A DNA stretch of 64,000 nt, from the IMG/VR virus record IMGVR_UViG_3300017707_001811, positions 37,573 to 101,572 of that record; one strand, 5' to 3'. Of this stretch, positions 22,965-60,626 are shown in pieces (positions within the stretch are counted from its first letter, which is position 1; every line of letters begins with the position of its first letter). The notes under the pieces are model-generated. The model ran no database searches, was not told where the DNA came from, and saw only the letters and a list, made by a program, of their open reading frames with translations. Position numbers and translations under genes: made by a program. The stretch comes from a virus (taxonomy: Duplodnaviria > Heunggongvirae > Uroviricota > Caudoviricetes).

Positions 22965-25900
22965 ATGTCAAATTTTCCATATAAAAAATCTATTTCGCCA
23001 ATACAATTACTCGGAACACAATCAGTTAACCGAGAAGCGACCTATGGTACTCATTTTAGTACTGATGGTATCGGTGGATACATGGAAGTTTTTAATGTAA
23101 CTGATTTAATTTTTACGATACCAACAGGACAAACAGGTTCAATTGAATATACTGGTAATACAATTCCTGTAAATTTATTGAAAGGAGGTGCTGGACCATT
23201 TTCAACTGACGTTTTAACTCTAAACCCTGATAATATATCTTCAGGTAGAAGAAAACTTGGGATGTTAGTTTATGTTTATGAATATGACCAAGTTTACCAA
23301 TTTGCAATAGATAACTACGAAACACTTTGGAATAACGCCACTGGGGCAACAAATACCGTTGTTATTTCTGAATATGGAACAACCGTAAATACCTCAACAC
23401 CTGAAGGACAACTTTTAGTATCATCATGGACCGCAAATACAATTGATGGGGTAAGTGGTGTAACAAGAAGTAATGCGGTTTGGAAAAAATATTATGGTAC
23501 TAATTTGGCGGTTACGGGAGGTTCTTTTAACGGAGTAACTGGAACCTTAACTCTTACTAATATAACAGGTGGTACACAAAATATTACTGGATTTGGTTCA
23601 GGTGGAGGTGGAGGAGCTCCAATTACAGGAGGTACTTTTGATAGTAGTAATTTAGAATTAGATTTAACTTCTTCAGCGGGAACAATAACTGTTACAGGTG
23701 TAACAGGATTGTATATTTCGGCAGGAACATATAGTAGTGGAAATACAACATTATCATTATCAAACTCAACTGGTGGAACAATAACCATCACAGGTTTTAG
23801 TCAAACATTTTCAGGAGGGTCAGGAAATTGTATCAACCAATTATATTTGAATGAAATTTACCCATGCACTTCTGATATAAAAATTCAACCACTGTCAACA
23901 GGTAGAGTTTACTTTGGAAATAACAGTGGGGCTTCAGGTTTAACAATTGACTTTAATTCAGAAACGGCTCAAAAATCTGCAAGATTAGGATTAAACATAA
24001 ACAATCCTGAATATACATTTGATTTTAAGAGTTTTGATAGAAAATCGGGATTTTTCTTTAGAGATGACATAGTGGCACCATTTGGTGATTGGAAACAAAT
24101 TGCAATTTCAGGAGATACTGATAATGTATTAATGTATACTTCTTTTCAGCCTGATGCCTCAGGAAGTTTAGGGCCACATGGTATTGCAATTGGGTCAAGA
24201 GGATATGGTAATTCTAGTACTACAACAAATAACTCTTTAGGAAGAACTGGTGACACATTTGTGTTTGCCTTTTCAAATACAAATGGGTTAAATATTATTA
24301 ATGGACCTGGAACAAATACTGATGATTATATAAGATTTTATGCTGGTCAAACTGTAGGTAGTAATACTCCTGATGTTCATATACAAGGTAGTGGGTCAAC
24401 AAGAGGATTTGTAGGGATAGGAACTACTGCAGTAACAAACCCATTACATGTTTATGCAACTTCTAATCCATTGAGATTAGAGGGTCTACAATCGTCCGCT
24501 AATACAAGATTTTTAGTTGCCAATTCAGACGGTGTTGTAACTTACACAACAACCGCACCTAGTGGAGGAGGAGGATTTAGTGCCGTATCTATTAATAATG
24601 TGGTACAATTTGACACAAGTGCGTCACAAACTATTAATTTCAGTGGTGTTAATATAAACATAACTTCCGCATCTACTAACACATTAGTCTTTAGTGGAGG
24701 AGGTGTTACCGTACCTGGCTCAAATAATCAAGTATTAACCTCAAATGGGTCAGGAGGAATTGTTGCTGAGTCATTGTTAACTTTTGATGGATTAGCATCA
24801 TCTCCACCATTAAATGTGAATGGAATAACTATATGGAGAGGGAAAAACAACTCAAGTAAAAGTATTGGTATTGGGCCCCTAACTTTAAATAACACAACAA
24901 GTGGTGTTGCAAATATTGCTATTGGTCCAGGGTCACAAACTAATACAAATACTGGATACAATAATATAAGTATAGGTCTTTCATCGTTATCTGCAAACAC
25001 ATCAGGAAATCGAAATATTGCGATAGGTACATACGCAATGAACCTAAATAGTGGTGGATATGGTAACGTTGCGATAGGAGATAGGTCTTTATACAAACAC
25101 TATATAGGGGACTTTAATATAGCTATAGGGGCTAGTTCTCTATATTATAGTGACACTAATTCTTCAGGAACTGATTTTAATATTGCTATAGGTAGATGTG
25201 CAATGTTTTATAATTCAGGTGGAACTGAAAACATTGCTATAGGTAGAAGAGCTTTGGCAGGTAACAATCCTAATAAGCAGTTTGGTAATTTTAACATAGC
25301 CTTAGGGAGAGGAAGTTTATATCAAAATTATAACGGTGACTATAACATTGCTATAGGTAGAAGTTCACTATATTCTAATAGTACTGGTTTACACAACGTT
25401 GCGATTGGTAGGAATTCTAATGGTGAAAATACAACAGGAAATAATAATATATCTATAGGGTATAATTCATTATATTATAATACAACAGGGTTAGGAAATG
25501 TATCAATCGGAGCTGACAGTTTATACAGTAATGTATATGGTAACCATAATGTTTCTATAGGTTATCTTTCAGGTAAAAACAGCGCTGGTAGTAGAAATGT
25601 ATTCATTGGTAGAGAGTCAGGATTTAATGAAGTTAATTCTGATAGATTACACATTGCTAATTGCCAGACTAGGATACCACTAATTTTTGGTGAATTTGAC
25701 ACTAACAGATTAGGTATCAATACAACAACTGTAACTAATACTCTTCATGTTTCGGCAACTACACATCCTGTTAGATTTGAAGGATTACAATCTTCTGCAA
25801 ATACAAGATATTTGGTGGCGAATTCTGATGGAGTAGTAACGTATGTTACAGGTACAACAGGTTCATTCTCAGGAGATTATTTACCTTTAAGTGGGGGAAC

Positions 25901-26429
25901 AGTTACTGGAGGAACTTCTTTTACTGCGGGACTGACTGCAAATACTATTTCAGCAACAACGTATTTAAATTTACCAATCGACCCTGATACGTATGTTACA
26001 GGTTTTACTTTAAATTCTAATACGGTAACCCTATCTCAAAATAGAAATGACCAATATTCAGCGTTTACAATAAATTTATCTGCATATACAGGAAATACAG
26101 GACTAAGTTATTATACGGCAACAACAATAGGTGATGGTGTTATAGATACTATTGATACTACAATTGGATATAGACAAGTTAGTTATGATTATACTTTAAC
26201 AAGTAATAATGGCTCAATAAGAAGTGGAACTTTTACTGCGAATTGGAATACAGGTTTAACAATTATTAATTATTATGATGCTGGACCATCCGAAATTATG
26301 GAGTCAACTGATGTTATTGATAATCTTTCAGCAATTATAAATGGTACTGATATAGATATAACCTTATCAGTCACACCTAATACTGAAACATGGGTGTTTA
26401 AATCACTTAAAAAACTTATGCCTGTATGA
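22965..26429 (+). CDS. Tail fibre / adhesin with YadA-head-like (NxAIG) beta-roll repeats
   Basis: About 14-residue N-x-[AS]-I-G repeats in residues ~650-900; Gly/Thr-rich shaft; internal duplicated module LHV.AT..P.R.EGLQSSANTR.LVANSDGVVTY. Confidence 0.75.
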   Translation: MSNFPYKKSISPIQLLGTQSVNREATYGTHFSTDGIGGYMEVFNVTDLIFTIPTGQTGSIEYTGNTIPVNLLKGGAGPFSTDVLTLNPDNISSGRRKLGMLVYVYEYDQVYQFAIDNYETLWNNATGATNTVVISEYGTTVNTSTPEGQLLVSSWTANTIDGVSGVTRSNAVWKKYYGTNLAVTGGSFNGVTGTLTLTNITGGTQNITGFGSGGGGGAPITGGTFDSSNLELDLTSSAGTITVTGVTGLYISAGTYSSGNTTLSLSNSTGGTITITGFSQTFSGGSGNCINQLYLNEIYPCTSDIKIQPLSTGRVYFGNNSGASGLTIDFNSETAQKSARLGLNINNPEYTFDFKSFDRKSGFFFRDDIVAPFGDWKQIAISGDTDNVLMYTSFQPDASGSLGPHGIAIGSRGYGNSSTTTNNSLGRTGDTFVFAFSNTNGLNIINGPGTNTDDYIRFYAGQTVGSNTPDVHIQGSGSTRGFVGIGTTAVTNPLHVYATSNPLRLEGLQSSANTRFLVANSDGVVTYTTTAPSGGGGFSAVSINNVVQFDTSASQTINFSGVNINITSASTNTLVFSGGGVTVPGSNNQVLTSNGSGGIVAESLLTFDGLASSPPLNVNGITIWRGKNNSSKSIGIGPLTLNNTTSGVANIAIGPGSQTNTNTGYNNISIGLSSLSANTSGNRNIAIGTYAMNLNSGGYGNVAIGDRSLYKHYIGDFNIAIGASSLYYSDTNSSGTDFNIAIGRCAMFYNSGGTENIAIGRRALAGNNPNKQFGNFNIALGRGSLYQNYNGDYNIAIGRSSLYSNSTGLHNVAIGRNSNGENTTGNNNISIGYNSLYYNTTGLGNVSIGADSLYSNVYGNHNVSIGYLSGKNSAGSRNVFIGRESGFNEVNSDRLHIANCQTRIPLIFGEFDTNRLGINTTTVTNTLHVSATTHPVRFEGLQSSANTRYLVANSDGVVTYVTGTTGSFSGDYLPLSGGTVTGGTSFTAGLTANTISATTYLNLPIDPDTYVTGFTLNSNTVTLSQNRNDQYSAFTINLSAYTGNTGLSYYTATTIGDGVIDTIDTTIGYRQVSYDYTLTSNNGSIRSGTFTANWNTGLTIINYYDAGPSEIMESTDVIDNLSAIINGTDIDITLSVTPNTETWVFKSLKKLMPV

Positions 26430-37515: not shown

Positions 37516-37740
37516 TTAAGTTACTGTAAAACAATTAGTTATTTCACACCCATCGTTATCAACTATCCTTACACAATATCCTTTTAAATCTTGAATAGGG
37601 TATGGTACGTTGAAACTATAAGGTAATTCTGCTGACGTAATAACACCCATATAATAACAAGGTGTCCCACCTGTTAAACATAAATATAACTCATATGGAG
37701 TTGAACCTGTAATATTACTAACTGTTACTGAAGTCGGCAT
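37516..37740 (-). CDS. Small Cys-containing Ig-like virion protein (paralog of 29447..29674)
   Basis: [12 protein letters not shown]...CYY...VRIVDNDGC; preceded by TATTTATA on the minus strand (37744..37751). Confidence 0.65.
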
Positions 37741-53022: not shown

Positions 53023-53946
53023 TTGGAAAACTATTATGATATTTTAGGAGTCGCGGAAACCGCTACACAAGATGAAATTAAAAAGGCTTACAGACAAAAG
53101 TCAAAAGAACATCATCCTGATAAGGGAGGTAACGAGGAAACTTTTAAAAAGATAAATGAGGCGTATACTACTTTGGGTGACGATAATAAAAAAGTCCAGT
53201 ATGATAACCAAAGAAAGAACCCATTTGGTAATAATCCTTTCGGTGATATATTTGGAGATTTTTTTGGAGGTTTTGGAGGACAACAAGTTAAAAGGGCTCC
53301 TGATAAGATTATAAATGTACAAGTAGGTGCCGTAGATTCTTATTTAGGTAAAGAAATAAATATATTTTTTAACAGGAAAAATAATTGTCAACCTTGTAAT
53401 GGACAAGGAGGAACTAGAAATACTTGTAAAAAATGTAATGGTAGCGGATTTATTACACAAAGAGTTGGTAATGCGTTTTTCTCTAACATTATACAAACTC
53501 ATTGTAATGAGTGTAATGGTAAAGGTTATAGTCTAACTAATGTTTGTCAATCATGTTTAGGAGAGGGAAGAATCGACGAAACAAAATCAGTCTCAGTTAA
53601 TCTCCCAAAAGGAATATCTGACGGGCAGTTAATAAAGGCTGGGGGAATGGGTGATTACTCTAACGGTATGTTTGGTGATGTTATATTTAAAATTAATATT
53701 ATACCACAAGCGGGATTTGAAAAATCAGGTTCCGACTTAGTTTATAATAAATTTATGTCATTAGATGATTTTACTAAAGAAAAAATCCAAATTCCACATC
53801 CATCAGGTGATTTAAATTTAACATTACCTGACGACATAGACACAAGTAAACCACTTAAAGTAAAAGGTAAGGGTTACCAAAATGAAAATGGTGATTTATA
53901 TGTTAGAATGTATGTTAGACATAGAAAAAATAAGTTAGATTATTGA
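53023..53946 (+). CDS. dnaJ: Type I DnaJ chaperone
   Basis: J-domain with HPD (EHHPDKGG), four CxxCxGxG repeats and a C-terminal domain; TTG start. Confidence 0.93.
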   Translation: MENYYDILGVAETATQDEIKKAYRQKSKEHHPDKGGNEETFKKINEAYTTLGDDNKKVQYDNQRKNPFGNNPFGDIFGDFFGGFGGQQVKRAPDKIINVQVGAVDSYLGKEINIFFNRKNNCQPCNGQGGTRNTCKKCNGSGFITQRVGNAFFSNIIQTHCNECNGKGYSLTNVCQSCLGEGRIDETKSVSVNLPKGISDGQLIKAGGMGDYSNGMFGDVIFKINIIPQAGFEKSGSDLVYNKFMSLDDFTKEKIQIPHPSGDLNLTLPDDIDTSKPLKVKGKGYQNENGDLYVRMYVRHRKNKLDY

Positions 53947-54813
53947 ACTAACTAACTTATCAACATCAAACATTTCGGAAATTGACATATAAGGACACTC
54001 GTGGTTTATTCCCTCAAATGAGTAGTCAAATAAATATGAATCTATCAATTTTACTGTGTCTGAAGGTAAATTAGCAACAATGTTATTGTGTAAATCGTAA
54101 CCAAAATTTTTGGGTGAAGTACCAATCCAAATTACGTTAGACTTTAGACCAAGAGCTGACGATGCATGTTGTAAACATGAATCAATTAGGATTCTTTTAT
54201 CTGACACTAAAAGAATTGAGAATAAATCATTAGATGATAACTCATCATTAACAACCTCAACACCACTGAGTTGTCTAGAAGATGGTTTACAAATTTGAAT
54301 TATATGGTGAGTCCTTTCAAATTTTTTAACCAAAGACTGAGATACGTCAAAAGGAATATCTCTAGTCCATGAATATGGTTGTTTTGAATTAAAGGCACCT
54401 CCATTAGTTTGTATAACTAAAATAGGTTTTTCTCTGTACCATTTATTAGATGACCTTTTTTGTGGTAAATTTAAGTTAAGTACTGGAGTTTGATTTTTAT
54501 AATCAATACCTAACAAATCAGCCCAATTTTCAATTAGATGGGATTTTTTATGAATATGATTTGATTGATAATATGGTTCATGTCTGAAAATTATGGTGTC
54601 CTTATCTTTTATATAATCATCATAAAAATATTGAGTGTTACCTAATTTATAAACTCTATATATCGAATCATTATTTAAAAATACTTCAGGATATGATGCA
54701 ACGACTACTATTTTTCTATCTGAATATTTTTCTTTAAGTGAAGATAGTAATGAAGTTGCCGCAATATTTTTTCCTAAACCACCCTGTATGTGCCAAACTA
54801 TATATTTTTCCAT
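53935..54813 (-). CDS. Glycosyltransferase, GT9 (heptosyltransferase)-like
   Basis: GGLGK N-terminal loop and IDSCLQHASSALG...W.GTSP C-terminal motif (cf. DSG.MHLAAALG.P...FG.T.P). Confidence 0.75.
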   Translation of the reverse strand: MEKYIVWHIQGGLGKNIAATSLLSSLKEKYSDRKIVVVASYPEVFLNNDSIYRVYKLGNTQYFYDDYIKDKDTIIFRHEPYYQSNHIHKKSHLIENWADLLGIDYKNQTPVLNLNLPQKRSSNKWYREKPILVIQTNGGAFNSKQPYSWTRDIPFDVSQSLVKKFERTHHIIQICKPSSRQLSGVEVVNDELSSNDLFSILLVSDKRILIDSCLQHASSALGLKSNVIWIGTSPKNFGYDLHNNIVANLPSDTVKLIDSYLFDYSFEGINHECPYMSISEMFDVDKLVSSII

Positions 54814-55256
54814 TATTTTTTTGTCCCAATTCTTATAAATTTATACCAAACACGCTCATGAATAAAGTAAACTATAGGTTTAAATAACAATTCACCAATA
54901 CCAATTAGAGATGATAGTTCTAATGAAATACCTAAAGAAAAAGCTGAACCAACTGTTATTAAAGTACCTAATATACGATAAGAAATTGTTTTTAAAATGT
55001 GTCTTGTAAGTACCGATTCTTCTTTAATTGTAGTTATATAGGCTACAGTATTTTTTAATTCACATACTCCTTTACAGCTAATATGCCACTTAAATTCATT
55101 TAATTCGGGAACCCAATCCTTAGTTGTATAAGTATGACCATCAACAATTATATCGGAAACTAAAATTTCATTACCGTTTTCAATTAGTCTCCATCTCTCA
55201 CATTCATTTGTTGAGTTAGTATTGTATCTTATTTGAAAAGTTTTTATATTCTTCAT
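54813..55256 (-). CDS. Unknown N-terminal domain fused to DUF2061-like membrane hairpin
   Basis: C-terminal RHILKTISYRILGTLIT...ELLFKPIVYFIHERVW matches the DUF2061 pattern. Confidence 0.7.
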   Translation of the reverse strand: MKNIKTFQIRYNTNSTNECERWRLIENGNEILVSDIIVDGHTYTTKDWVPELNEFKWHISCKGVCELKNTVAYITTIKEESVLTRHILKTISYRILGTLITVGSAFSLGISLELSSLIGIGELLFKPIVYFIHERVWYKFIRIGTKK

Positions 55257-55651
55257 AATTTACCTTCAAGCCTCATTTGTTCCCTTATTTTAGTTGCAGA
55301 AATGTCGTGTATTTCTTGTGGAGGGATTCTTTCAATAATATCATATCCAACACCTCTACCAAATTCTATTGAACATATATCAGGTATAACCATCACTTTA
55401 ACCCTATCACTCAATTCTGAATAGTGTAACTCAATATTACTTTTAACTTCTTGTGCGGTAAATGGATTTTTTTCATCTGGCTCAATATCTCTAATACAAA
55501 TTAGAACATTCTTACCTTCATCCATAGCTTGTTTAAATAGCTCCTGGTGTCCTTTATGTAGAGGTTGCCACCTACCAACAAACATTGCAAATTGACCATC
55601 TTTTGATTTTAAAGAGGATTGAACGTGAAGTTTTTTATCCCAATTACTCAT
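55253..55651 (-). CDS. HxGH nucleotidyltransferase (cytidylyltransferase/NadM-like), candidate minimal sulfate adenylyltransferase
   Basis: FVGRWQPLHKGH, NPF and ISATKIR motifs; overlaps the APS kinase gene. Confidence 0.75.
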   Translation of the reverse strand: MSNWDKKLHVQSSLKSKDGQFAMFVGRWQPLHKGHQELFKQAMDEGKNVLICIRDIEPDEKNPFTAQEVKSNIELHYSELSDRVKVMVIPDICSIEFGRGVGYDIIERIPPQEIHDISATKIREQMRLEGKL

Positions 55652-56076
55652 TTTCTATTAAAAGGTATTAAATTAAGACATTCGTCTATAGTTTTATTTG
55701 TTGTATCGATATTAATAAAGTCTTCAGTTGGTTGTTCATATTCCTTAACAAAATTATGTTCTCTACCCCTGATTTCACTTGTGTGAACATATATTTCACA
55801 AACTTCATTAGTTTCCTTTAATGAGTTTCTCATTTTTTTATAAGGAGCAACAACAGAAATAACAACAGTAAATCCCTTGTGGTCTAAAAATCTAGCTAAA
55901 TCTAATACAGATTGGATATTTTTAATTCTACCTTCTGAAGAATAATCAAAGTTTTGAAATAGTTCTCTCAAACCATCTCCATCAACATTAATACAATTAT
56001 CTGAACACTTCTCAATTAAAGCGTTTGCTAATGTTGTTTTTCCTGCACCAGGTTGACCTGTAAACCAATAAATCAT
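55648..56076 (-). CDS. cysC: Adenylyl-sulfate (APS) kinase-like
   Basis: WFTGQPGAGKTT P-loop, VDGD.LR, R..NI, VVAPY, IYV and YEQP...IDT. Confidence 0.8.
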   Translation of the reverse strand: MIYWFTGQPGAGKTTLANALIEKCSDNCINVDGDGLRELFQNFDYSSEGRIKNIQSVLDLARFLDHKGFTVVISVVAPYKKMRNSLKETNEVCEIYVHTSEIRGREHNFVKEYEQPTEDFINIDTTNKTIDECLNLIPFNRK

Positions 56077-56336
56077 TGTGATATGTAGTTTTTACCCGAT
56101 TGAATTGAATCGTTAATATCCTGTAGTTGGTTTTGAGTTAATCCTGACATAAACCAATCTTTATTTTTCATCAATTCTAAATGTTTATAGTTTCTTTCTA
56201 CAGTATTTTTTTTTGTGTCAATATCGTCATTAATAAGTTTAGACCCATCGATTATACCATTTATTAGGTTCACTGAGTCAAATGCTGAATTAATTGACCT
56301 TGCAACATTTGGAACTCTTTCTTTTTCGTTATCCAT
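56073..56336 (-). CDS. Small helical protein resembling fibre-associated assembly proteins
   Basis: SVNLINGII...VERNYKHLELMKNKDWF resembles a motif I recall in or next to phage fibre genes. Confidence 0.45.
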   Translation of the reverse strand: MDNEKERVPNVARSINSAFDSVNLINGIIDGSKLINDDIDTKKNTVERNYKHLELMKNKDWFMSGLTQNQLQDINDSIQSGKNYISQ

Positions 56337-56342
56337 ATTATT

Positions 56343-57158
56343 TTATTTATAGTTAAATTTATTAAAAAACCAATTATAATGATTATATAATCTATTACAA
56401 TTTTCAATACCTAATATCTCATTATAATCTTCTTTTTGAGGAGAAAGAGTATTTTTAATGGTATGGTCACCAAAAATACCATGGATTACATCATTTTCAT
56501 GAGTTAATTGTTCTATTCTCTCAAAATCATGTTGATATGGAGGTATTTCTAAATAATTATAAATTCGTTTTAGTTCTAATTCAGGATTTGAAGTTAAATC
56601 TTCAAATCGGATAAATAAAATATCTTTATCGTATCCTTGGTGAATTGATTCATATAACCATTCTAAAGATGGACCAATTGGCGGAGATATCGAAAAGTGG
56701 TCAATTCTTGAATTAGTTGTCATATTTTTCAGCTCAGAAACATTTACTAAAAGAGGGTCCTTATGTGAGTTCTTTCTATAGTTTTTTTCCATTGAAGAAA
56801 AAATAGACCTAAGGTCTCTAACCATACAGATAATTTTTGGAGTACCGTAAAACCATTTTAAGAAATGGTAGTTACCAATCCAAGCTCTACTCTTATCAAT
56901 AACATAAGGTCTTTCAGTAATACCATCAAAAAAACCATTTAAACCTTTTTCACAAAAACTTCTTAATCCCTCTTTCATTTCATCAGGATTTTGAGCTTTA
57001 AATGCGTCTCCTGTTGAATATATTGTTCTGGCTTGTAAAATTAATTCTATAACACCTGATGTTGGTGTAGAATATATGTCAGGATTTTGCATTAATATAT
57101 TTTGAATTAATGTCGAGCCCGCTCTAGGTAAAGAGGCATTAAAAAATATTTTCTTCAT
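56343..57158 (-). CDS. PAPS-dependent sulfotransferase
   Basis: 5'-PSB loop SLPRAGST, 3'-PB motif VRDLRSIFSS and RFEDL..NPE..LKRIYNYL. Confidence 0.9.
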   Translation of the reverse strand: MKKIFFNASLPRAGSTLIQNILMQNPDIYSTPTSGVIELILQARTIYSTGDAFKAQNPDEMKEGLRSFCEKGLNGFFDGITERPYVIDKSRAWIGNYHFLKWFYGTPKIICMVRDLRSIFSSMEKNYRKNSHKDPLLVNVSELKNMTTNSRIDHFSISPPIGPSLEWLYESIHQGYDKDILFIRFEDLTSNPELELKRIYNYLEIPPYQHDFERIEQLTHENDVIHGIFGDHTIKNTLSPQKEDYNEILGIENCNRLYNHYNWFFNKFNYK

Positions 57159-57164
57159 GGGTTA

Positions 57165-57193
57165 ATTTTAACCTATAAAGTTATAAATGTCAA
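57165..57193 (-). promoter_or_regulatory. Near-consensus sigma70-type promoter for the sulfotransferase operon
   Basis: Minus strand TTGACA (57193-57188), 17 nt, TAAAAT (57170-57165), 6 nt before ATG 57158. Confidence 0.65.
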
Positions 57194-57195
57194 AG

Positions 57196-58713
57196 TTAAG
57201 CTAATAAAACTTTATATGAATTACCATTAATTATAATTTCCCAAGTTCTATAAGATTTACAAGATTCATAAGTTATTGTTCCTGCGGGAAATGACGAGCT
57301 TCCAACCACTAATTGGTTATTTGCGGTTGCAAATGCGTTATGACCAATAATAATTGACGAGCGATAATTATAAGAGTTTGTATTACAACCTATAGCAATA
57401 TTGTTCGAACCTGTAGTATTATAATATAATGATTTATAACCTATTGAAATATTATTGGCTCCTGATGTATTATAATATAATGACTTATAACCAATCGAAA
57501 TTAGATAACTAGCTCTTGTACTATTTACGGTTGACCTAAATCCTACTGAAACATTTTTACTTCCATTATTATTTGAATACAATGAACTTCTACCTATTGC
57601 AATATTAAAACTTCCACAGTCATTTAAATACATTGAACCTCTACCCATTGCTATGTTATACGACCCTCTATTTCCATAACTAGTACTACCAGCCAAAGCT
57701 CTCCTACCAATTGCAATATTACCTGAACCATTCCTGTTACATAATAATGCGCATCTTCCTATTGAAATATTAAAATCGTTATACTGACTTAAATTGTAGT
57801 ACATAGATGATTGACCTATTGCGATATTGAAGTCTGATTTATTTAAATTTAGTCTTAAAGAATCGTAACCTATTGCAATGTTTGAATCACCATCACAACT
57901 AGTTCTCATGGAGTTTGTACCTATTGATATATTTTTAGTACCATTGATATTAGAGCGTTGAGAATTAACACCTAATGATATGTTATTATCCGCTTTATTA
58001 TCAATTAGAGTACTAGCCCCTAACGAAATATTATTACTACCACTAGCTGAGTAATATTGAGAATCATTACCCAAAGAAATGTTATTAACTCCCCCACTTC
58101 TTCTTTTTTGACTATTCCTACCTATTGCGATATTATCACAAAAATTTGCAGAAATACAACAACCCTCTAAAGAAGAAGTTCCTATTCCTATATTATTAGA
58201 ACCAGTAGATAAATTTTTTAAAGTACTTTTACCTATAGAGACATTATTATCTAGTAAAGATACAGGTAATTTAAATGCAACATTACCTATCGAAATATTA
58301 CTAGAGTCATTTCCATTGCCCCTACCAATACAAACACTATTAACATCCAAAGTCGGAGACGACACTGTACCATCAAAAGTCAATAAAGATTCTGCAACTG
58401 TTCCACCAGACCCATTAGATGTTAATACCTGATTGTTTGAACCTGAAATACTAAACGAAGGTGTTCCACTAAAGGTAAGTTTATCACTTCCATCTATAAT
58501 AGTAATATTAACACCACTAAAACTTTTCAGAGCAATGTTTCCACCTGTAACACCAGATATATCTGAGACACCGTTACCAACAGTGTAAGCACTTGTTATG
58601 TAACTCGTAAGTGCGGAATATACCTCCCAATATATACCATTCCATTCCCACGTTTTATTATCGTAAGTATATTGTTGATTTGGTGACGGACTATTTGGAA
58701 AATTAATTGGCAT
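57196..58713 (-). CDS. Tail fibre / adhesin with YadA-head-like NxSIG/NxAIG repeats (paralog of 22965..26429)
   Basis: INFPNSP..Q.YTY..KTWEWNGIYW adaptor; shared GSNNQVLTSNGSGG.VAESLLTFDG block; beta-roll repeats. Minus-strand TATTTATA at 58724..58731. Confidence 0.75.
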   Translation of the reverse strand: MPINFPNSPSPNQQYTYDNKTWEWNGIYWEVYSALTSYITSAYTVGNGVSDISGVTGGNIALKSFSGVNITIIDGSDKLTFSGTPSFSISGSNNQVLTSNGSGGTVAESLLTFDGTVSSPTLDVNSVCIGRGNGNDSSNISIGNVAFKLPVSLLDNNVSIGKSTLKNLSTGSNNIGIGTSSLEGCCISANFCDNIAIGRNSQKRRSGGVNNISLGNDSQYYSASGSNNISLGASTLIDNKADNNISLGVNSQRSNINGTKNISIGTNSMRTSCDGDSNIAIGYDSLRLNLNKSDFNIAIGQSSMYYNLSQYNDFNISIGRCALLCNRNGSGNIAIGRRALAGSTSYGNRGSYNIAMGRGSMYLNDCGSFNIAIGRSSLYSNNNGSKNVSVGFRSTVNSTRASYLISIGYKSLYYNTSGANNISIGYKSLYYNTTGSNNIAIGCNTNSYNYRSSIIIGHNAFATANNQLVVGSSSFPAGTITYESCKSYRTWEIIINGNSYKVLLA

Positions 58714-58722
58714 ATCTTTTCG

Positions 58723-59937
58723 TTATAAATAATATAATATTTCAGCAGTTCCTAAGAAAGTTGCATTAGCACCCAATGGGGTAATACAAACCCACATTTC
58801 ATCTAAAGTACCATTCACATTAGAACCTACTCTTATTTGGTTATCATCCACTTTTATTGTTGTTAATGCTGATGTTCCAGCCTCCCCAATTAATGAAGAC
58901 ATAATGTGTCCACTACTTGTTATTGTGGTAGCCCCAACACCTAATGAATATTGGAATGGTGAGTTAGGAATATCAGTCCAAGTTGGTGTCGCTGACAAGG
59001 TTGGGTTAAACTCAATGGTCATTAAATAGTTATCATTTGATGTATTTAATAAACTTAAACTACTATATTGTGATGTAACAGATTTATAGGATTGTTTTAA
59101 TCTATACCCAATATATGGATATTTTGTACCTGAAGTCGATAAGGTTGCAGTTGATGAATGTATAACCCCAACGGTACTATATAAACCATTTAATGCACCT
59201 TCAGTAGAAACTTGACTACATATCATATCAAAACTACCCGAACCCGACCCAACTTGTCTTATCTCATATCTTATAGGTTGGTTTGGTGAACTCATATAAA
59301 CTAAACTTTCATTATTAGAACAATTATGTTCAGTAAAATAAAATGTTTGTCCAGATAAAGCAAGTCCAAATCTCAACCTACCAACTCCTAACCATTGGTA
59401 ATCAACAGTCATTAACTGAGTGTTTGACCATATAAGATTTGTTGGGTCAAATTCATTTGTTTCCCAAGTTGTTGTTGACGCACTAAATATTGTTGTACCT
59501 GACCTCCAAATTTGAAAACTTATCGTATTTGATGTTCCGTTACTTTCCAAGAAGAACCCGTCAAAAACTGAATTATAAGTTGATGCGGTTGTTGTAGTAA
59601 AACATCCCACTCTTTTTATTACATTTGTTTCTAACTGAAAATTTGAAAAACTTCCCTCAAATAACTGACTCTTACCAGGTTGGTATATTGGGTGTGTTTT
59701 TGTTTGTCTAATTACCAAATCATTATTTGAAGATGTTGACATTCTAACTCTCGCATACTCCTGATTAAAAACTGATGTCGCAGTTCCTGCGGTTACTTCA
59801 TTAACTTGTAATGGGTTTTTGTCGTAAACATGCTTAATGTCCAATAGATTTTGTACCGCAGCAGTCCTCAATCTACCAAAAGCGTCAAGATTTGGACTAT
59901 CAGAATATTTTACCGCATTATTATATATAAAACTCAT
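58723..59937 (-). CDS. Virion protein of the 'DAFGRLR' type
   Basis: NLDAFGRLR..., RQTK...YQPGKS and WLGVG motifs, which I recognise from phage structural proteins. Start moved to ATG 59937 (ATGA overlap). Confidence 0.6.
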   Translation of the reverse strand: MSFIYNNAVKYSDSPNLDAFGRLRTAAVQNLLDIKHVYDKNPLQVNEVTAGTATSVFNQEYARVRMSTSSNNDLVIRQTKTHPIYQPGKSQLFEGSFSNFQLETNVIKRVGCFTTTTASTYNSVFDGFFLESNGTSNTISFQIWRSGTTIFSASTTTWETNEFDPTNLIWSNTQLMTVDYQWLGVGRLRFGLALSGQTFYFTEHNCSNNESLVYMSSPNQPIRYEIRQVGSGSGSFDMICSQVSTEGALNGLYSTVGVIHSSTATLSTSGTKYPYIGYRLKQSYKSVTSQYSSLSLLNTSNDNYLMTIEFNPTLSATPTWTDIPNSPFQYSLGVGATTITSSGHIMSSLIGEAGTSALTTIKVDDNQIRVGSNVNGTLDEMWVCITPLGANATFLGTAEILYYL

Positions 59938-60626
59938 ATTAAATACCAATTTCCGCCCCTAACCATACAGGTTAAAGACATATAGTTTATGTTCATATCA
60001 ACGTAATTATTGTTGTCAATTGTTCCTGATGAAGGTGTTAATCTTATTCTATAAGTACCACAAATCCCTGCTTCATCTTTTATTATTAAATAATAACCCT
60101 CTTTACCTACTACCGATGGTAATACCAAATCAACATTACTATTACCACTTATACCCCAATATGTTTTATCCCAAGTTAAAGATTGTCCTGTAGTAATTCC
60201 TGTTGTTGTATAATATCCCGCATCAGGTGATAAAGGACCTGGTACCGAGAACGGCTGAACCCATTGTTGTGAATCACCATCATCAATCCAAACCAATTCA
60301 ACACCTGTATTTGTATTGAACCACCTATCCCCACTTATAATAATTCCTGTAGGTGTTGATGCAGATATATAATATTGTAGACCTCCACTCGAAGACCCTG
60401 AAACAGGACCCCAATAAGCATAACCTGTACCATCGGTTAATAAAGCATATCCATTTTGTTCAGTTCCATTAGAATAGGTAAAACCGCTATAAACTGTTAA
60501 ACCTGAAGAAAAAATTGGATTAACAGGAATTGAACCACCTATACGATAAACAACACCTGTTGAAAGGTCAGATTGAAGTACGTAATTATAACTATCCTTA
60601 ATTAATTGGTCTTTAATATCGGCCAT
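59934..60626 (-). CDS. Fibre-associated virion protein
   Basis: P....GDRWFNT.TG...W.DDGDSQQWV motif and C-terminal LP..GYYLIIKDEAG...ID......NY.SLT...GNW fibre repeat. Confidence 0.55.
   Translation of the reverse strand: MADIKDQLIKDSYNYVLQSDLSTGVVYRIGGSIPVNPIFSSGLTVYSGFTYSNGTEQNGYALLTDGTGYAYWGPVSGSSSGGLQYYISASTPTGIIISGDRWFNTNTGVELVWIDDGDSQQWVQPFSVPGPLSPDAGYYTTTGITTGQSLTWDKTYWGISGNSNVDLVLPSVVGKEGYYLIIKDEAGICGTYRIRLTPSSGTIDNNNYVDMNINYMSLTCMVRGGNWYLI

Follow-up and report, generated by a model that had tools for sequence, protein, structure and literature searches.

The cycle that makes and uses 3′-phosphoadenosine 5′-phosphosulfate (PAPS) consists of a sulfurylase, an adenosine 5′-phosphosulfate (APS) kinase, a sulfotransferase and a 3′-phosphoadenosine 5′-phosphate phosphatase. 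To our knowledge, two enzyme types, Sat and CysDN, account for sulfate activation. In the bifunctional PAPS synthases and Sat-CysC pairs (human PAPSS1/2, Aquifex aeolicus Sat/APS kinase and the fungal ATP sulfurylase with an APS-kinase-like domain), an adenylyltransferase of the HxGH superfamily works with an APS kinase, either as a partner or in one fused protein. NodPQ-NodH in rhizobia and RaxPQ-RaxST in Xanthomonas place a private PAPS supply beside the sulfotransferase that consumes it. They use CysD/CysN-CysC homologues and act on a glycoconjugate or on a secreted or surface protein. We analyzed a locus that resembles these systems in a 64,000-nucleotide stretch (hereafter the window) from a virus of the Caudoviricetes, namely positions 37,573 to 101,572 of IMG/VR record IMGVR_UViG_3300017707_001811. 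Six minus-strand genes encode, in their order of reading, a sulfotransferase (ST), an 87-amino-acid protein, an APS-kinase-like protein (KIN), a small HxGH adenylyltransferase (NT), a membrane protein with a DUF2061 domain and a predicted glycosyltransferase (GT) of 292 amino acids (GT292). On balance, we favor reading them as a cassette for sulfation that provides its own PAPS.

The kinase-then-transferase fusion order of the PAPS synthases also occurs in phage homologues. PAPSS1 and Aquifex Sat match the fold of NT with Z scores of 6.2-6.3. Unlike Sat, NT has only 132 amino acids and lacks the N-terminal PUA-like and other Sat domains, and, unlike the PAPS synthases, the phage kinase has no lid and a DUF2061 membrane partner is added. 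The locus differs from the NodPQ and RaxPQ loci in its carrier, a lytic-type jumbo phage, in its fibre neighbours, and in that neither Sat nor a PAPS_reduct/CysD homologue was found in the 185-kb phage record. Literature searches returned no report of any sulfated phage component or of a sulfurylase resembling nicotinamide mononucleotide adenylyltransferase (NMNAT). Nothing relevant was found on what DUF2061 does, on sulfotransferases or PAPS pathways of phages, or on fusions of a cytidylyltransferase with an APS kinase.

The source record has a G+C content of ~30% and an estimated completeness of 63%, and its genes include those for ribonucleotide reductase, a baseplate wedge protein, a sigma factor, an SbcC-like nuclease and DnaJ. 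The six minus-strand open reading frames (ORFs) listed in an earlier note on this DNA were found at exactly the coordinates given there, 53935-57158 (Table 1). Pfam, PHROG and fold searches agree with the names it gave to the six genes. The genes overlap or abut, as it had said: from ST to GT292, a 6-bp gap is followed by overlaps of 4, 4, 4 and 1 bp. It forms the distal end of a minus-strand block of nine genes read in one direction, which begins with virion or fibre genes (VS3, VS2 and VS1) and ends with the cassette. Three such genes had been placed directly upstream of the cassette on the same strand; two are clear by PHROG and the third is weak. A blastn search of the whole block against GenBank phages gave no match.

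A profile scan of IMG/VR with NT yielded at least 472 confirmed viral matches, of which the best 80 loci were tabulated. Synteny across relatives had been proposed as a check on the cassette, and the order ST-KIN-NT-DUF2061-GT indeed recurs, at 36-97% protein identity. The close relatives L007/L008 and L009 retain VS1-ST-(87 aa)-KIN-NT-DUF2061-GT, and the cassette order is held in IMG/VR and JGI phage contigs as ST identity declines from 90% to 50%. In distant phage contigs of 200-320 kb, identity is 50% for ST, 55% for KIN, 85% for NT, 45% for DUF2061 and 36% for the GT. In these contigs, the cassette lies inside islands of GT2, GT34, GT1, GT9 and GT25 enzymes and methyltransferases. What lies between ST and KIN differs among loci: 87 amino acids here, 56+129 amino acids in L013, 106 amino acids in L028, and ~600 bp of DNA with no assigned gene in L009 and L036. 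Homologues of the 87-amino-acid protein are confined to close relatives, and other relatives have different genes or none in this position.

Gene presence was counted in 31 of the best 80 NT loci, those with at least 5 kb on each side. KIN occurs in 30 of them, DUF2061 in 22, GT292 in 13 and ST in 11. The median KIN-NT gap is 19 bp in the 69 of the best 80 loci that have KIN. GT292 is present in 11/11 ST-bearing loci (11 loci with both genes, 0 with ST only, 2 with GT292 only and 18 with neither; Fisher 9e-7, in a test that ignores phylogeny). The clustering of the cassette is far beyond chance. The co-occurrence pattern points to two modules, namely KIN-NT-DUF2061, which we call the activation module, and ST+GT292, and it supports the view that ST and the GT9-fold enzyme act together. 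The activation module also stands alone, beside DNA methylases, UvdE or sugar-nucleotide enzymes. Five contigs from bacterial metagenome-assembled genomes (MAGs), L117, L118, L119, L122 and L180, have a phage-type KIN-NT-DUF2061, and two of these also have ST-GT292. Their MAG labels are Chitinophagaceae, Eubacteriales, Bacteroides, Lutibacter and Saprospiraceae, and they probably represent phage DNA that ended up in MAG bins.

The chief reason for thinking that NT activates sulfate comes from bacteria. We found 1,282 NT relatives in 1.8 billion cluster representatives and read the fusions in the best 150. In these, NT is fused to the kinase many times and in both orders (KIN-NT and NT-KIN), and once to DUF2061 (P0164). 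An NT::APS-kinase fusion occurs in 9/301 genomes of a small-genome bacterial phylum, and the kinase half of the bacterial fusions is a full APS kinase (180-190 bits). A CysQ-type (Inositol_P) gene abuts the fusion in four of the six loci inspected (L110, L111, L113 and L115), and sulfotransferase, flippase, pyruvyl-transferase or GT2 genes lie near the bacterial fusions. Among five small genomes with the fusion, Sat was found in none and CysD in one, and Sulfotransfer_1 matches occur in four, three of them over the family cut-off. One of the genomes in which both Sat and CysD are missing consists of a single 1.0-Mb contig, and its sulfotransferases are 4 kb away from the fusion. Given the PAPS cycle, the sulfurylase alone is unaccounted for in these bacterial operons, and since NT is an adenylyltransferase, it would supply the missing step.

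The earlier note had proposed the kinase and the HxGH enzyme as a sulfate-activation pair. This pairing gains from the two-way fusions, from the CysQ, CysC and sulfotransferase neighbours in bacteria lacking Sat and CysD, and from the linkage of DUF2061 to cysC described below. We also considered KIN and NT as a nicotinamide riboside kinase/NMNAT (NadR-like) pair or a phosphopantetheine adenylyltransferase (PPAT)/dephospho-CoA-kinase pair. Both were rejected, because the kinase of the bacterial fusions is a canonical APS kinase encoded among genes for CysQ, CysC and sulfotransferases. In three of the four CysQ-bearing loci, the fusion is followed by a second canonical cysC, so that two APS kinases stand side by side in these CysQ / NT::APS-kinase / CysC operons.

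The DUF2061 protein of the cassette matches PF09834, a two-helix membrane domain, with 50.7 bits (cut-off 23.1). It also has an 80-amino-acid N-terminal domain without a family, and relatives have separate genes of 77 and 72 amino acids in place of the 147-amino-acid protein. In the best 80 bacterial DUF2061 loci, mostly from Flavobacteriia, the domain adjoins or is fused to cysC in 64, with cysD following in 52 and cysN in 45. Its position is directly upstream of cysC-cysD-cysN or fused with it. The resulting DUF2061-cysC-cysD-cysN operon is near-universal in loci L125-L195 (Flavobacteriia and other Bacteroidota), which include ~13 DUF2061::CysC fusions. The flavobacterial proteins are tandem DUF2061 repeats. 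In the Pelagibacteraceae contigs that were retrieved, DUF2061 occurs alone among small phage-like ORFs. The operon places this domain of unknown function clearly within a pathway, and, as judged from gene neighbourhoods, its linkage to cysC supports a sulfate-activation role of the phage module independently of NT.

The predicted structure of NT is confident (model pLDDT 93). Its nearest folds are the archaeal NMNAT 1f9a, NadM and PPAT (Foldseek; VIA Z 9.7), and NadM/archaeal NMNAT (1f9a, 1ej2 and 2qjo) is its best match in both sequence and fold. ATP sulfurylases match less closely, with Z 7.7 for 1v47 and 6.0-6.3 for PAPSS1 and the Aquifex, soybean and yeast enzymes. Thus, NT shares the HxGH superfamily with ATP sulfurylase but is not its nearest kin. 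The motifs GRxQPxHxGH, NPxT and ISxTxIR align to 1f9a. Across 36 members of the NT family, H32, H35, R99 and S118 do not vary, while R54, T120 and R123 are nearly invariant; the family-specific arginines R54 and R99 would suit a small anion.

Nor is NT an NMNAT. Profile positions 8-78 align to residues 4-75 of 1f9a and positions 88-117 to residues 110-138, and the segment between them is missing, as is the C-terminal tail. The missing ~30 residues, which in NMNAT lead from the fourth strand to the ISxT helix, are taken to be its NMN/nicotinamide-binding part (1ej2/1f9a). Every NMNAT cut-off in NCBIfam is missed, the best NT score being 38 bits against a cut-off of 127. In addition, the genomic partners of NT are APS kinase, CysQ and sulfotransferases rather than NAD genes. 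Within the cassette, NT is by far the best conserved, with 84-85% identity in distant relatives vs 36-57% for the others. We regard NT as a candidate non-canonical ATP sulfurylase, with the balance tilting slightly in favor of this activity.

Another explanation is that NT is not a sulfurylase, that APS comes from the CysDN of the host with only KIN serving ST, and that NT has a different function linked to the kinase. It could make an ADP-activated sugar for the GT9-fold enzyme, much as domain II of HldE does in the case of ADP-heptose; it could regulate or scaffold, like the inactive sulfurylase-like domain found in some APS kinases; or it could adenylylate another small anion. The nearest relatives of NT agree with this idea, since they are NMNAT, PPAT and further proteins with the cytidylyltransferase fold. 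The matches also include a lipopolysaccharide (LPS)-core enzyme of Thermoplasma and HldC, as well as, weakly, a PHROG heptose-1-P adenylyltransferase. GT9 enzymes use ADP-heptose. Moreover, flavobacterial hosts own DUF2061-cysC-cysDN, and in one MAG cysD-cysN adjoins the NT::APS-kinase fusion. However, NT accompanies KIN and DUF2061 where GT292 is absent, both in 18/31 loci and in bacteria without GT292, and both Sat and CysD are missing from four of the five small genomes that carry NT along with sulfotransferases and APS kinase. A mere scaffold is argued against by the invariant or near-invariant HxGH and ISxTxxR motifs and by the exceptional conservation of NT. We therefore consider a different job for NT doubtful.

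KIN scores 67.2 bits against Pfam APS_kinase (cut-off 21.1) and retains the P-loop, DGD..R, YS..GR.KN and SPY motifs (alignment A6). Residues G7, G12, K13, D32, G33, D34, R37, R50 and N53 are invariant between it and canonical CysC. The part of the earlier note that named it an APS kinase stands on this family match and these motifs, but KIN lacks the lid and misses the NCBIfam cut-offs. The lid deletion is common to KIN and five other short phage kinases that were aligned, while the lid is kept in L086, P0157 and both canonical CysC proteins.

With a sulfurylase candidate, an APS kinase candidate and a sulfotransferase close together, we consider it likely that the cassette produces PAPS, or adds to its supply, for the sulfotransferase/glycosyltransferase pair that it encodes. 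Several findings weigh against this. In its modelled fold, NT is nearer to NMNAT and PPAT than to ATP sulfurylase. It reaches 17.3 bits against the Pfam ATP-sulfurylase family (PF01747; cut-off 24.3), and the match covers only residues 29-52, the HxGH region. The earlier note was correct that an HxGH enzyme is paired with an APS kinase, but the enzyme is not of the Sat type. Because the Sat profile fails and NMNAT/PPAT folds are nearer, sulfurylase activity is something that we infer for NT. KIN scores 75.9 bits against the NCBIfam model apsK (TIGR00455; cut-off 138.7), falls below the cut-off of every subfamily model, and is missing ~20 lid residues (the KGLYKKAR...FTGI segment). In one MAG, the NT::APS-kinase fusion lies between cysD-cysN and giant GT-sulfotransferase genes, so NT is not always the sole possible sulfurylase. 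KIN-NT is found without a recognizable sulfotransferase in the complete or near-complete phages Sano, DLP6 and G308 (90% completeness); the cultured Xylella phage Sano and Stenotrophomonas phage DLP6 carry a KIN::NT fusion, and no Sulfotransfer_3 gene was found in either genome. Conversely, the cyanophages S-SKS1, S-SRM01 and S-SCSM1 have the ST family without NT. Finally, the co-occurrence tallies are not phylogenetically independent.

Phages that carry the activation genes alone raise the question of whether these genes are general sulfur auxiliary metabolic genes (AMGs), or whether they contribute sulfated sugars to hypermodified phage DNA. Consistent with such roles, KIN-NT(-DUF2061) without a sulfotransferase occurs beside a DNA methylase, UvdE and early genes. 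The phage record also has a ThyA-family gene outside the window (314 bits, 380-amino-acid frame) that may encode either a thymidylate synthase or a pyrimidine hydroxymethylase. Glycosyltransferases of phages that hypermodify their DNA exist, according to work cited in PMC12619734. However, the activation genes here are locked to the ST+GT pair and to fibre genes, CysH and sulfite reductase were not found in the record, and family searches found no DNA-modification genes in the block. For this phage, we regard both roles as very improbable. The earlier note preferred virion decoration to a sulfur AMG. Its preference finds support at this locus in the ST/GT and fibre association, but the AMG reading is not refuted in general, because activation genes occur in complete phages without a sulfotransferase.

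ST matches Sulfotransfer_3 with 64.2 bits (cut-off 27), Sulfotransfer_1 with 40 bits (cut-off 22) and phrog_27463 (2e-39). Its 5′-phosphosulfate loop is PRAGST (residues 11-16), and its 3′-phosphate motif RDxRS reads VRDLRS (residues ~113-118). Both PAPS-binding motifs align to their counterparts in protein-tyrosine sulfotransferase 1 (TPST1), which is, together with StaL, its nearest solved relative by sequence (E 8e-6, 28 bits, residues 4-212 for TPST1). Because these are the nearest relatives, the acceptor class cannot be read from homology.

The kinship to TPST1 and StaL suggests direct protein sulfation, in which ST would act on tyrosines in the manner of TPST or RaxST and the GT9-fold enzyme would act independently on the same protein. 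The repeats of VS1 do have recurrent YY and Y motifs. However, the TPST1 match is weak and dominated by the shared PAPS-binding motifs. The position of the TPST catalytic Glu appears to be unmatched: the GEET stretch of TPST1 faces TPTS in ST, in a low-confidence part of a weak alignment. TPST sites typically have an acidic context, which the VS1 tyrosines lack. In addition, the strict pairing of ST with the GT and the embedding of the cassette in GT/methyltransferase islands in relatives favor a sugar acceptor. Tyrosine sulfation thus seems quite improbable.

The label GT9-like given to the 292-amino-acid protein in the earlier note is appropriate at the level of the fold only, because sequence profiles fail while Foldseek matches GT9. 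There is no Pfam match at E 0.1, including PF01075 (GT9), and a search of the PDB with the GT292 profile found only WaaF, marginally (E 1 over 39 residues). By contrast, the top Foldseek matches are 3tov, WaaF (1psw), TibC and WaaC, with E 5e-8 to 1e-5, and most matches at E <= 0.001 are GT9 enzymes (3tov, 1psw, 2h1f/2gt1 and 4rb4/4rap; template modelling (TM) score ~0.5 for the best, at 5e-8).

These matches bring to mind the bacterial autotransporter heptosyltransferase (BAHT) systems TibC-TibA and Aah-AIDA-I. As with GT292 and VS1, they comprise a GT9-fold enzyme beside a repeat-rich, beta-structured protein, in their case a beta-helical adhesin that is the substrate. Hallmarks of BAHT enzymes are a four-cysteine iron site and a dodecamer-forming insertion, and we know of no sulfation in BAHT systems. 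Unlike TibC, which has ~400 amino acids, GT292 has 292, and 3tov and WaaF outrank TibC among its matches.

A further comparison is offered by mycobacteriophages, whose glycosyltransferases encoded near structural genes glycosylate virion proteins (Freeman et al. 2023, PMC10527164, as cited in PMC12619734). As presented in that source, this system differs from the cassette in its Actinobacteria hosts, in its targets, which are the C-termini of capsid and tail-tube proteins, and in its GT families, and no sulfate or donor-synthesis genes are mentioned.

From the gene content, conservation, fusions, neighbourhoods and folds, we infer every activity, the donor sugar and the acceptor, as follows. 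NT would adenylylate sulfate (ATP + sulfate -> APS + PPi), and the lid-less KIN would phosphorylate APS to PAPS. The DUF2061 membrane protein would partner the kinase step, perhaps by tethering it to the membrane. The GT9-fold enzyme would add a sugar, and ST would sulfate the product with PAPS. The likeliest acceptor would be the adjacent YadA-head-like VS1 or other Ser/Thr-rich virion fibres. The modification would then resemble the glycosylation of autotransporter adhesins by TibC and Aah, with sulfate in addition.

VS1 matches PHROG tail-spike and virion-structural families over four stretches (7e-39 to 1e-24), and its structure matches in the Atlas are phage PTL_trimer / Peptidase_S74 fibre clusters (TM 0.7). 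It is built of NNIAIGxxS repeats of ~14 residues. In L007/L008, L009, L023, L029 and L036, the gene immediately upstream of ST is a homologue of VS1, and in two of these the fibre stop abuts the ST start. A giant Ser/Thr/Gly-rich ORF (at least 450 amino acids, Ser+Thr at least 22%, Gly at least 15%) lies within 8 kb in 9/13 loci that bear ST or GT292, compared with 0/18 activation-only loci (Fisher 3.5e-5). The VS1 homologues and the giant ORFs beside transferase-bearing loci bear out the claim that the cassette travels with fibre genes. We regard a virion fibre as the leading, if still tentative, candidate for the acceptor. The giant ORFs that adjoin the cassette in L020, L030, L055, L065, L083, L010/L011 and L013 have 1,200-2,200 amino acids, with 23-47% Ser+Thr and 20-31% Gly, and look collagen- or mucin-like. 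Elsewhere in the window, a protein of 1154 amino acids has the repeat families phrog_6002, 4636 and 23837 in common with VS1. It is a second YadA-head-like fibre paralogue, larger than VS1, and another acceptor candidate.

Other observations detract from the fibre as acceptor. The case for fibre decoration is one of genomic association, and the loci behind its tallies share ancestry. VS1 itself is not extreme in composition (Ser+Thr 23%), and a promoter-like site parts the fibre gene from the cassette. The relationship of ST to a tyrosine sulfotransferase means that the sulfate may go elsewhere than onto a sugar. The AlphaFold model of GT292 is of moderate confidence (pLDDT 66), and a TibC-type four-cysteine site is not apparent in the GT292 sequence, in which cysteines are scattered.

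The same cassette could also sulfate and glycosylate the envelope of a Bacteroidota host during infection, be it LPS, capsule or a glycoprotein at the surface, perhaps to block superinfection or the re-adsorption of progeny to debris. The distant cassettes are located in polysaccharide-like islands with multiple GTs and methyltransferases, away from VS1, and the bacterial NT::APS-kinase genes occur in polysaccharide clusters with a flippase, an ABC exporter and a pyruvyl transferase. The LPS-core enzymes WaaC and WaaF are among the top GT9 fold matches, and DUF2061 is embedded in the membrane. However, no flippase, Wzx/Wzy or exporter was seen in the phage block, the association with fibres and Ser/Thr/Gly-rich ORFs is specific to transferase-bearing loci, and the fibre gene abuts ST in several relatives. 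We therefore view a host-envelope acceptor as unlikely.

Regardless of the acceptor, the glycan in this phage may be simple. The extra GT and methyltransferase genes of the relatives have no homologue anywhere in the 185-kb record, except that a GT2 glycosyltransferase, the sole one found when seeking the extra glycan genes, lies outside the window and 83 bases from the record end. The glycan may therefore be a single sulfated sugar, or further genes may lie in the unsampled part of the genome.

If NT activates sulfate, it would be a third, very small solution to APS formation. It would be widespread in phages, as judged by the number of viral matches, and would also occur in small-genome bacteria that are seemingly unable to make APS. 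The annotations “adenylyl-sulfate kinase” and “cytidyltransferase-like” would be corrected, and DUF2061 would gain a context. If the product is on fibres, virions could bear polyanionic, mucin- or heparan-like surfaces, which bears on adsorption and on sticking to algal or host exopolymers. In that case, part of the “sulfur AMGs” of viromes would be virion-building genes rather than boosters of host metabolism, and the fibre coat would be the first case of a sulfated phage virion. The full proposal, that NT founds a third, minimal class of ATP sulfurylase that works with a lid-less kinase and DUF2061 and is used for a sulfated-sugar fibre coat, is speculative, and we consider it rather less probable than its failure.

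Table 1 Coordinates of the cassette, its neighbours and other features (window positions, except for the two G000:C1 entries, which lie outside the window)
Feature	Position	Strand	Length	Basis
VS3, start of the nine-gene block, perhaps a fibre or virion protein	59934-60626	-	230 aa	weak PHROG tail-fibre match, 1.2e-3
VS2, virion structural protein	58723-59949	-	408 aa	phrog_1645, 1.1e-49
VS1, YadA-head-like beta-repeat fibre	57196-58713	-	505 aa	PHROG tail spike / virion structural protein
Sigma70-like promoter match	57165-57193	-		TTGACA-17-TAAAAT in the 37-bp VS1/ST gap
ST, sulfotransferase	56343-57158	-	271 aa	Sulfotransfer_3, 2.7e-17; Sulfotransfer_1, 3.9e-10
87-amino-acid protein	56073-56336	-	87 aa	no Pfam family
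KIN, APS-kinase-like P-loop kinase	55648-56076	-	142 aa	Pfam APS_kinase, 2.2e-18
NT, NMNAT-like minimal adenylyltransferase	55253-55651	-	132 aa	CTP_transf_like, 7e-8; HxGH
DUF2061 protein	54813-55256	-	147 aa	PF09834, 2.4e-13, residues 87-137
GT292, GT9-fold glycosyltransferase	53935-54813	-	292 aa	Foldseek on AlphaFold model
DnaJ	53023-53946	+		J domain, Gly/Phe region, zinc-finger CxxCxGxG repeats
1154-aa protein, fibre paralogue	22965-26429	+	1154 aa	repeat families in common with VS1
TATTTATA boxes	29703, 49465, 58724 (-), 60655 (-), 60999, 63323			
ThyA-family gene	G000:C1:160565-161677		380 aa	314 bits
GT2 glycosyltransferase	G000:C1:184619-185083			

Among the upstream genes, a PDB sequence search gave no match for VS2 and nothing useful for VS1. 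The sigma70-like site between VS1 and ST has the top score in the region, matching the consensus at 11/12 positions; this is a match to the consensus only. Its −10 hexamer ends 6 nt ahead of the ST ATG. The site is retained in L007 and absent in L009 and L036, in which the fibre stop abuts the ST start.

Several genes, among them VS3, VS1 and one head-region gene, have another element, the TATTTATA box, 2-30 nt before their start codon; the box upstream of VS3 is ~30 nt away. The element is not enriched overall (17 observed vs 20 expected). There may be two promoter classes inside one co-directional block. Since ST has TTGACA-17-TAAAAT, and VS3 and VS1 have TATTTATA, the cassette may have its own timing.

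Moraphages are freshwater jumbo phages of Bacteroidota with DnaJ as a hallmark and several core GTs, and their description does not mention sulfation (PMC12619734). The phage studied here has traits in common with them, being a freshwater jumbo phage with Bacteroidota-like features and DnaJ beside the cassette; these are shared traits only and not a phylogenetic placement. The DnaJ gene is full-length and converges on the GT9-fold gene, overlapping its 3′ end by 12 bp.

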